64,000 nucleotides of DNA, taken from a virus. Taxonomy: Duplodnaviria; Caudoviricetes. Made by a program: the position numbers and the translations under genes. Shown here in pieces: positions 45,653 through 46,379 of this stretch (positions within the stretch are counted from its first letter, which is position 1; each line of letters starts with the position of its first letter). The notes under the pieces were generated by a model. That model saw only the letters and a program-made list of their open reading frames with translations, did no database searches and was not told where the DNA came from. The stretch lies in the IMG/VR virus record IMGVR_UViG_3300028549_001530, positions 1-64,000 of that record; one strand, given 5' to 3'.

Positions 45653-45708
45653 AAAGTAACCTATATTGGGAGTCTAGCATAATTGGATGTACTGAGAAAA
45701 GGAAAAGT

Positions 45709-46043
45709 AGGATGTTAGCTCAGTTGGTTAGAGCAGGGTACTTAGGAATGGGTCATTAACGAAAAATGAGTTGGTAGTCTAACGGCATAACAATTCAATC
45801 GAAAGACGTTAATAGTATTTCCGTAAATTCGGTGAACTCTAAGTTAGTATACAATACTAATATGACAATGCCGAGCCAAGCCTAATATTAGGAAGGTGTA
45901 GAGACTAGAGACGGAATACCTAAAATATAGAAATATATCATGGTGATAGTATAGTCCAGACCACAAACATATAAAATAAGGTAGTGAAAACTATAGTGGT
46001 AAGCATAATGCCTTGGTCACTGGTTCAAGTCCAGTACATCCTA
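45709..46043 (+). tRNA. tRNA(CAT), most like Ile2, interrupted by a group I intron; CCA not encoded
   Basis: Exons 45709-45742 and 46004-46043 join to AGGATGTTAGCTCAGTTGGTTAGAGCAGGGTACT|CATAATGCCTTGGTCACTGGTTCAAGTCCAGTACATCCTA, a full cloverleaf. The body resembles bacterial tRNA-Ile2 more than tRNA-Met. Confidence 0.9.
45743..46003 (+). ncRNA. Group I intron (261 nt, IC3-like) between U33 and C34 of the tRNA
   Basis: P AAATTCGGTGAA, Q AATGCCGAGCCAAG, R GTAGAGACTAGA, S GTATAGTCCA; P1 with U33.G pair and GGAA loop; terminal G. Confidence 0.92.
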
Positions 46044-46071
46044 CTTTTCCTTTTTAGAAATAAAGTTAATT

Positions 46072-46090: not shown

Positions 46091-46108
46091 CATAAGAGTG
46101 TTCATTTT

Positions 46109-46183
46109 ACGCGTGAAGCTTAACTGGATAAGCAGCGGATTTCTACTCCGTAGTTAGTGCAAGTTCGAATCTTGTCACGCGTA
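46109..46183 (+). tRNA. tRNA-Arg(TCT); CCA not encoded
   Basis: Acceptor ACGCGTG/CACGCGT, D arm GCTT/AAGC, anticodon arm GCGGA-TTTCTAC-TCCGT, T arm GCAAG-TTCGAAT-CTTGT. Confidence 0.85.
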
Positions 46184-46379
46184 AAATGAACATTTATAGT
46201 TTTCAGGTAGATCTTCTAGATATGTAATCATCGTTCTTCAGTTGTCTCCCTACGCTGGCATCGTACAGCACTTCATATATCTATTCACTTTAAGTGGACT
46301 ACCTCTTTTACACCAACCCACACATAGAAAGCTCACCACTTTCTATGTGTGTTCTTTTTCATTTCTCACAAAGGATCAT

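Follow-up and report, generated by a model that had tools for sequence, protein, structure and literature searches.

The window analysed here is the first 64 kb of an IMG/VR viral record of 88,565 bp. CheckV estimates this record to be about 44% complete, which at such a length indicates a jumbo-size phage. The GC content of the phage is 33%. Its family-A DNA polymerase shares only about 24% identity with the best phage matches, which come from cultured phages, so no close relatives are available. A synteny search with the 309-aa protein encoded downstream of the tRNA locus found no related viral loci.

Using ARAGORN with introns permitted (option -i), we obtained a split tRNA gene on the plus strand at 45709-46044 with an insert of 261 nt. 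Exon 1 (45709-45742) supplies the 5' strand of the acceptor stem (AGGAUGU), the D arm, the anticodon stem strand GGGUA, C32 and U33. Exon 2 (46004-46043) begins with C34, A35, U36, A37 and A38 and continues with the stem strand UGCCU, the variable loop, the T arm, the acceptor strand ACAUCCU and A73. After removal of 45743-46003 the exons join into a flawless cloverleaf of 74 nt, whose anticodon loop CUCAUAA has seven nucleotides, including A37 and A38. The start given in the earlier note, 45709, is exact, and its end, 46043, agrees if the discriminator A is counted as the last base. CCA is not encoded by the split gene, in which the discriminator A is followed by CUU (46044-46046); nearly all relatives, intron-less and intron-bearing, differ in this respect and end in ACCA.

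An intact tRNA-Arg(UCU) gene follows on the same strand at 46108-46184 and is the sole other tRNA gene in the 88.5-kb record. Default ARAGORN and the Rfam tRNA model at its gathering score detect this gene only. Both are blind to the split gene, as had been predicted for standard tRNA finders. The observation at 45709-46043 is nevertheless confirmed and lies far beyond chance expectation. Every element under which the locus had been described (a phage, a CAT tRNA, an Ile2-like body, a group I intron and a splice site at U33/C34) holds computationally.

Identity of the spliced tRNA

Provided that the RNA is spliced, the tRNA is probably Ile2 rather than Met. The molecule carries G3-C70, C11-G24 and U12-A23, which fits the discriminators of Silva 2006. 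According to the same work, a tRNA with G3 or A3 and C70 or T70 is neither Met nor fMet, in which C3-G70 is usual. We compared the spliced product with all E. coli tRNA genes, the only annotated reference used. The best match was a CAT gene that PGAP annotates as tRNA-Ile, with 90% identity over positions 7-65 and 77% overall. An initiator tRNA-fMet was also considered and rejected. A1-U72 is paired, C11-G24/U12-A23 stand in place of A11-U24/G12-C23, and the anticodon stem GGGUA/UGCCU lacks R29G30G31:Y39C40Y41.

The best-surviving competitor keeps the same intron and the same site and takes the mature RNA to be an elongator tRNA-Met reading AUG, not a lysidine-modified tRNA-Ile2. In favour of this reading, the spliced product has the anticodon CAU and is named tRNA-Met by ARAGORN. 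The determinants of E. coli TilS, C4-G69 and C5-G68, are missing from the window tRNA, which has A4-U69 and U5-A68. Moreover, the distinction between Met and Ile rests on profiles more than on single determinants, and tRNA-Ile2, if unmodified, behaves as tRNA-Met (Silva 2006). However, C4-G69 and C5-G68 are not conserved across bacteria, Aquifex being one example (Silva 2006). Since the TilS determinants are not universal, their absence weakens the Ile2 assignment only slightly. G3-C70 is a reported negative discriminator for both Met and fMet (Silva 2006), and it is tRNA-Ile(CAT), not metT/U, that comes closest among the annotated E. coli genes.

The codon usage of the phage also argues against tRNA-Met. 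AUA makes up 36% of its Ile codons and reaches 29 per 1000 codons versus 21 for AUG. The demand is for AUA, and tRNA-Met is abundant from hosts. The neighbouring tRNA-Arg(UCU) likewise serves a rare A-ending codon; AGA accounts for 54% of the phage Arg codons. The two tRNA genes of the record, its only ones, thus match the two A-ending codons that the phage uses heavily. We therefore regard an elongator tRNA-Met as unlikely and retain tRNA-Ile2.

The pairing of Ile2 with tRNA-Arg(UCU) recurs in intron-less relatives (contigs L086, L089 and L092). In another viral contig, L087, an intron-less Ile2-type tRNA(CAU) adjoins a tRNA-Ile(UAU), so that two solutions for reading AUA lie side by side. 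We found no TilS-like gene in the 88.5-kb record. Thus, lysidine modification of the window tRNA would depend on the host enzyme.

The group I intron and its family

The insert occupies 45743-46003 on the plus strand and is a group I intron of 261 nt with a GC content of 34%. A search with the Infernal group I model, proposed in the earlier note, supported this assignment in part. Intron_gpI (RF00028) matches 45763-45965 at 33 bits, with an E-value of 1.6e-6 in an 801-base search and 4.1e-8 per record, but this is below the Rfam gathering score of 50 bits. The Rfam group I seeds include none from bacteria, and a cutoff of 18-20 bits has been used for hits nested in split tRNAs (Williams 2020, bioRxiv 10.1101/2020.01.27.920355). 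By the features used in that pipeline, the locus has an Intron_gpI hit above 18-20 bits, nested in a split tRNA found by ARAGORN, together with U-1 and omega-G. Because the Rfam score was low and Rfam has no bacterial seeds, we built an independent profile and independent pair counts.

Relatives were recruited with a pattern of 29 bases from the P6-P7 core of the window intron. The pattern matched 32 viral contigs, and in about 26 of them a tRNA gene is wrapped around the same kind of insert. This recruitment is partly circular with respect to the 29 core bases; the other approximately 170 aligned positions are independent. An nhmmer profile was made from 15 unique viral tRNA introns with the window excluded. 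In the 128 kb searched it gave a single match, at 45799-46002, with 97.5 bits and an E-value of 1.6e-29. The match stops one column before the last position of the profile, which places omega-G at 46003. When the window intron was added to the MAFFT alignment (16 introns), it stayed in register through the whole core. It also aligns throughout with introns of the classical IC3 settings (Leu.3Ug, CAU.5Ug and fMet.2Ug), although it remains unplaced in the tree.

The structure was mapped by hand onto the alignment for P3, P4, P5, P6, P7 (the pseudoknot), P8, P9 and P9a. Counted over 559 cells in the 16 introns, pairing in the core helices reaches 96.6%, compared with 25-47% when the partners are slid by 1-3 columns. 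Compensatory changes occur in 18 of the 36 pairs, and none of 500 shuffles reaches the observed values. RNAalifold applied to the MAFFT alignment missed P1, P2, P6 and P7 and placed a spurious hairpin inside a P7 strand; a block-wise version failed too. The stand-alone folding energy of the intron is unremarkable (MFE z = -1.3). Among the viral split-tRNA calls, five (L004, L012, L013, L015 and L031) have no loop position with U-1 and omega-G. These could be mis-calls of ARAGORN or settings with C at -1, as in Leu.3Cg.

A base-by-base check found P1, P10 and all core helices, including the P3/P7 pseudoknot, intact in the window. P2 (45755-45813), seen in the MFE folds and in the explicit pairs, is a helix of 7 bp (AUUAACG/CGUUAAU) that encloses an extra hairpin, P2.1 (45767-45773/45791-45797). 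This enlargement accounts for the unusual length of the intron, 261 nt versus 181-247 nt in relatives. Exact searches of viral and metagenome contigs with the exon/intron junction and with the P2 region gave no match. As the viral and metagenome collections contain no close relative either of the phage or of this exact intron, the enlarged P2 and its extra hairpin stand without comparative support. P3 (45819-45824/45911-45916) is in register with the family columns and encloses P4, P5/P5a, P6/P6a and the 5' strand of P7. In the family alignment its pairing is 100%, and each of the 6 pairs shows compensatory changes; the window version, UUCCGU/ACGGAA, consists entirely of Watson-Crick pairs and its sequence is unlike the P3 of relatives. 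A 9-bp bulged helix was tried for P3 and dropped in favour of the 6-bp P3 in the family register plus P8. The family register and the pairs also define P4 (45829-45834/45869-45874), P5/P5a (45838-45865), P6/P6a (45875-45897) and the 5' strand of P7 (45901 and 45903-45907).

Downstream of P3, P8 (UACC/GGUG) with its AU-rich P8a hairpin spans 45917-45945, according to the family pair counts and explicit pairs. J8/7 and the 3' strand of P7, UAGUCC, come next (45946-45957); together with 45901-45907, this strand makes up the guanosine-binding helix. P7 does not vary among the 16 aligned introns. In J8/7 the window intron has three positions at which most of the aligned relatives differ from it. 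The last segment (45960-46003), delimited by the profile, the alignment and the pairs, contains P9 (ACCAC/GUGGU), the P9a hairpin with a GAAA loop, AAG and omega-G at 46003. Several relatives share both the P9 end ...GUGGUAAG and the 3' ending of the intron ...AGUGGUAAG. The intron holds no endonuclease ORF; the only frame inside it is antisense and encodes 40 aa.

Several of these features could also be expected of a decayed, splicing-dead relic, with the locus being a tRNA pseudogene. The Rfam score is under the threshold. The intron lies on a long branch (0.76 substitutions per site), and no relative exceeds 70% identity to it. It has an enlarged P2, a weak, AU-rich P8 and substitutions in J8/7, and there is no homing endonuclease to keep it mobile. 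However, all core helices are intact, and the changes in them are compensatory rather than disruptive, as in P3 (UUCCGU/ACGGAA). No flaw is seen in P7, omega-G, the U.G wobble or the P1/P10 guide. In the alignment of 16 introns 61 columns are invariant; the window intron, being one of the 16, keeps them all by definition. The cloverleaf formed by the two exons and the 19-bp helix that brackets the gene are flawless, and neutral decay would not preserve them. We consider a dead relic improbable and continue with an intron that is predicted to splice.

Splice site, proposed processing and bracketing helices

Group I introns have a U before the 5' splice site (U-1) and a G at the intron end (omega-G). 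Of the 8 anticodon-loop positions at which the insert could be placed, U33/C34 is the only one with U at -1 and G at the intron 3' end. The predicted ligated junction reads ...GGGUACU/CAUAAUGCC... (the slash marks the splice junction). In 24 other viral contigs a stretch of 25 nt across this junction is found without interruption, always as part of an ordinary CAU tRNA gene. The tRNAs of these contigs are 75-86% identical overall to the spliced product of the window. Thus, what splicing is predicted to yield is an anticodon arm that does exist and recurs, and there are alleles without the intron.

An internal guide, AUGGGU (45748-45753), can be paired explicitly with each of the two exons. P1 (45740-45753) folds without constraint and pairs ACU/UA (45740-45744; the slash marks the 5' splice site) with UGGGU (45749-45753) across a GGAA loop. 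In it, GGU of the guide pairs with ACU of exon 1, and U33 forms a wobble pair with G at the 5' splice site. In P10, AUG of the guide (45748-45750) pairs with CAU of exon 2 (46004-46006). Since the guide pairs with both exons, the ligated ACUCAU is fully complementary to AUGGGU.

It is hardly credible that the insert is removed elsewhere, or by proteins and not by self-splicing: ARAGORN -i does tag the anticodon with an intron at position 38, that is, after position 37, but the resulting tRNA-Leu(UAG) was rejected, since this placement puts G at -1 and U at the intron end and breaks both group I rules, the tRNA body is Ile-type without the long arm of tRNA-Leu, the insert is clearly a group I ribozyme by the independent profile and the pair counts, and the CUCAUAA junction is present as such in 24 other contigs. 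The UAG anticodon in the output arises because ARAGORN places the insert by its own convention.

We therefore propose the following course of processing for removal at U33/C34. The precursor would be transcribed together with the downstream tRNA-Arg(UCU). The guide AUGGGU and the exon-1 bases ACU would form P1, with U33 in the G.U wobble, and free guanosine bound in P7 would attack after U33. The guide would then hold CAU of exon 2 in P10, the terminal G (46003) would enter the same site, and the exons would be ligated to give the loop CUCAUAA. The ends would be trimmed and CCA added, and lysidine formed, by host enzymes; host TilS would convert C34 and thereby make the tRNA a reader of AUA. 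Charged with isoleucine, this tRNA-Ile2 and the tRNA-Arg(UCU) would supply decoders for AUA and AGA, which are heavily used by the 33%-GC phage. Judging from the sequence, it is likely that the locus is a phage tRNA-Ile2(CAU) gene split at U33/C34 by a 261-nt IC3-like group I intron.

The two tRNA genes are each bracketed by a perfect inverted repeat. The repeat around the split gene (45697-45715/46036-46054) is 19 nt long and 100% complementary: on the plus strand, the 5' flank 45697-45708 pairs with the 3' flank 46044-46054 and adds 12 bp to the acceptor stem. The repeat around tRNA-Arg(UCU) (46099-46116/46175-46192) is 18 nt long. Both lengthen the acceptor stem of 7 bp by 10-12 bp, with the discriminator also paired. 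We compared the 110 split CAU tRNA genes listed from viral and bacterial contigs. It turned out that only the window gene has such a helix, of 12 bp, and that the other 109 have 0-3 bp. To our knowledge, bacterial and phage tRNAs have no described counterpart of this helix. The helix may serve as a signal, either for processing of the RNase III type or for stabilisation.

The presence of the helix raises the idea that the intron and the 19-bp helix together act as a phage-specific maturation gate and that the intron is not a passive passenger. In that case splicing would have to precede the formation of an anticodon loop, and the ends would be freed only once the long helix had been cut. Such a gate could control when the AUA reader becomes available, or hide the precursor from host nucleases that act on the anticodon loop, as the earlier note suggested for the interrupted loop. 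We consider it improbable that such a gate exists. The intron carries no endonuclease gene, and a selfish or neutral passenger is the best description of it.

Distribution and related systems

The classical bacterial settings of tRNA group I introns are Leu.3Ug, Arg.5Ug, fMet.2Ug and Ile2.5Ug, all of them IC3 (Williams 2020, bioRxiv 10.1101/2020.01.27.920355). The comparison drawn in the earlier note, with cyanobacterial fMet introns at U33/C34 and the Azoarcus Ile intron after CAU, is therefore right, fMet.2Ug and Ile2.5Ug being among these settings. The same note placed such introns mainly in cyanobacteria and some proteobacteria, which is overstated: the catalogue of Williams 2020, which covers cellular genomes only, counts 5292 split tRNA genes with group I introns in many phyla. 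Its seed alignment already holds rows for Ile2.2Ug, Met.2Ug and fMet.2Ug. The tRNAscan-SE 2 paper also mentions that bacterial genes for fMet and Ile2 can contain group I introns that the program does not detect.

Three previously known bacterial systems are close to the window gene. The seed rows Gba28.Ile2.2Ug and Sba135.Met.2Ug (Williams 2020) resemble it in tRNA class, in insertion after U33, in U-1/omega-G and in the design of P1, where CU at the exon end pairs with GG of the guide. These catalogue cases are from bacterial genomes, whereas the window intron is in a jumbo phage. A comparison by eye of Gba28 (core UAUAUCGGUAAAA, P6 GGA..UCC, P9 CUCCGA-GUAA) with the window (AAAUUCGGUGAAC, GCC..GGU and ACCAC..GUGGU, respectively) showed visibly different cores, so the two do not belong to the same sublineage. 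The tRNA-fMet intron of Synechocystis PCC 6803 uses the same U33/C34 site of a CAU loop (Williams 2020, citing Biniszkiewicz 1994). The 3' end of the cyanobacterial fMet intron (GUAGUGAAAACUAUAGUGGUA.G) is nearly identical to that of the window. However, its tRNA is an initiator (A11-U24, G12-C23 and a 1:72 mismatch) and the window tRNA is not; the Synechocystis intron also carries the I-Ssp6803I endonuclease gene, whereas the window intron has no ORF of note. The Azoarcus pre-tRNA-Ile(CAU) intron (Ile2.5Ug, IC3) shares with the window the tRNA species and the ribozyme family. Its core strings AAAUUCGG.GAA, GCCGAGCCAAGC and GAAGGUGUAGAGACUAGA are almost identical to those of the window, and its P1 (seed row Aol6) has the same layout of 3 exon bp, 2 intron bp and a tetraloop. 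In contrast to the window intron (34% GC, 261 nt, enlarged P2), the Azoarcus intron is GC-rich, 205 nt long, has a short P9 of another form and follows the anticodon (CAU/A), three bases downstream of the window site.

To assess the lineage more broadly, we scanned for a pattern of this intron lineage directly before CAT[AT]A. The pattern was found in 42 viral contigs and in at least 120 bacterial genomes, including Patescibacteria, Omnitrophota, Accumulibacter, Vogesella and Planctomycetes. After robust delimitation, the tRNA type was assigned by the Silva rule, which consists of simple positional rules. The 38 viral cases (L036-L076) comprised 35 Ile2, the window included, 1 fMet and 2 ambiguous genes. 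Among the 72 bacterial matches listed (L104-L183) there were 50 fMet, 20 Ile2 and 2 ambiguous genes. The U33/C34 intron lineage is mainly of Ile2 type in the viral contigs (35/38) and mainly of initiator type among the bacterial matches listed (50/72). With an Ile2.2Ug row in the seed alignment and about 35 viral contigs alike, the setting is not as unusual for a phage as had been suggested. Two viral Ile2.2Ug introns, L051 and L052, are far longer than the rest (637 and 553 nt, respectively) and could contain an ORF or some nested element.

Split tRNA genes also occur in deposited phage genomes. The cultured Agrobacterium phage Atu_ph07, a jumbo phage of 490 kb, has a tRNA-Leu(UAA) gene with a 278-nt group I intron at Leu.3Ug (L077; MF403008.1, approximately 112890-113251). 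This gene is unannotated and overlapped by a CDS for a 'hypothetical protein'. A similar unannotated split tRNA gene with a 205-nt intron is present in LR756501.1 (L078), an uncultured phage record of 735 kb. The record studied here has a second group I intron outside the window, at 71814-72121 (L001 1501-1808), with a stronger match to RF00028 (84.6 bits). The gene that it splits is RNA polymerase beta-prime-like, and the insertion directly follows NADFDG in the catalytic motif NADFDGD. The ORF of 425 aa at L001 251-1528 ends ...SFNADFDGRFCCH; no exon was found downstream.

An intron phylogeny, also proposed earlier, was calculated for 93 introns. It left the window intron unplaced, on a long branch and in no supported clade. 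The closest intron in identity is the viral fMet.2Ug intron L021, at 70%. Because of the long unplaced branch, we name no source or donor. Phages may be vehicles that move the intron lineage among bacterial CAU tRNA genes, which is a weaker version of a phage role than the gate.

A 2014 review stated that all phage introns observed to date were in protein-coding genes, despite the many phage tRNA genes. Devoto 2019 (PMC6784885) calls introns in phage tRNAs previously unreported and describes short 'enigmatic' ones. Like the window tRNA gene, the genes for these Lak megaphage tRNAs have their interruption in the anticodon region and escape bacterial tRNA finders. The available text gives the 'enigmatic' inserts no group I assignment, whereas the window insert is a complete group I ribozyme by sequence. 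A literature search for later reports of group I introns in phage tRNA genes found none. There is thus a gap between the literature and the data, in which three pattern scans returned dozens of viral contigs with split tRNA genes.

The locus belongs to a class that is catalogued in bacteria and is common, though barely reported, in uncultured phages. As a single locus it is ordinary biology for the intron family, and the under-reported abundance in phages is mildly interesting. Since split tRNA genes are overlooked in phages, phage tRNA inventories are systematically incomplete, which affects host prediction as well as codon-adaptation and recoding studies. The genome studied here gains a second tRNA that ordinary annotation overlooks, and this tRNA would account for the way in which an AT-rich phage meets its greatest demand among the Ile codons.
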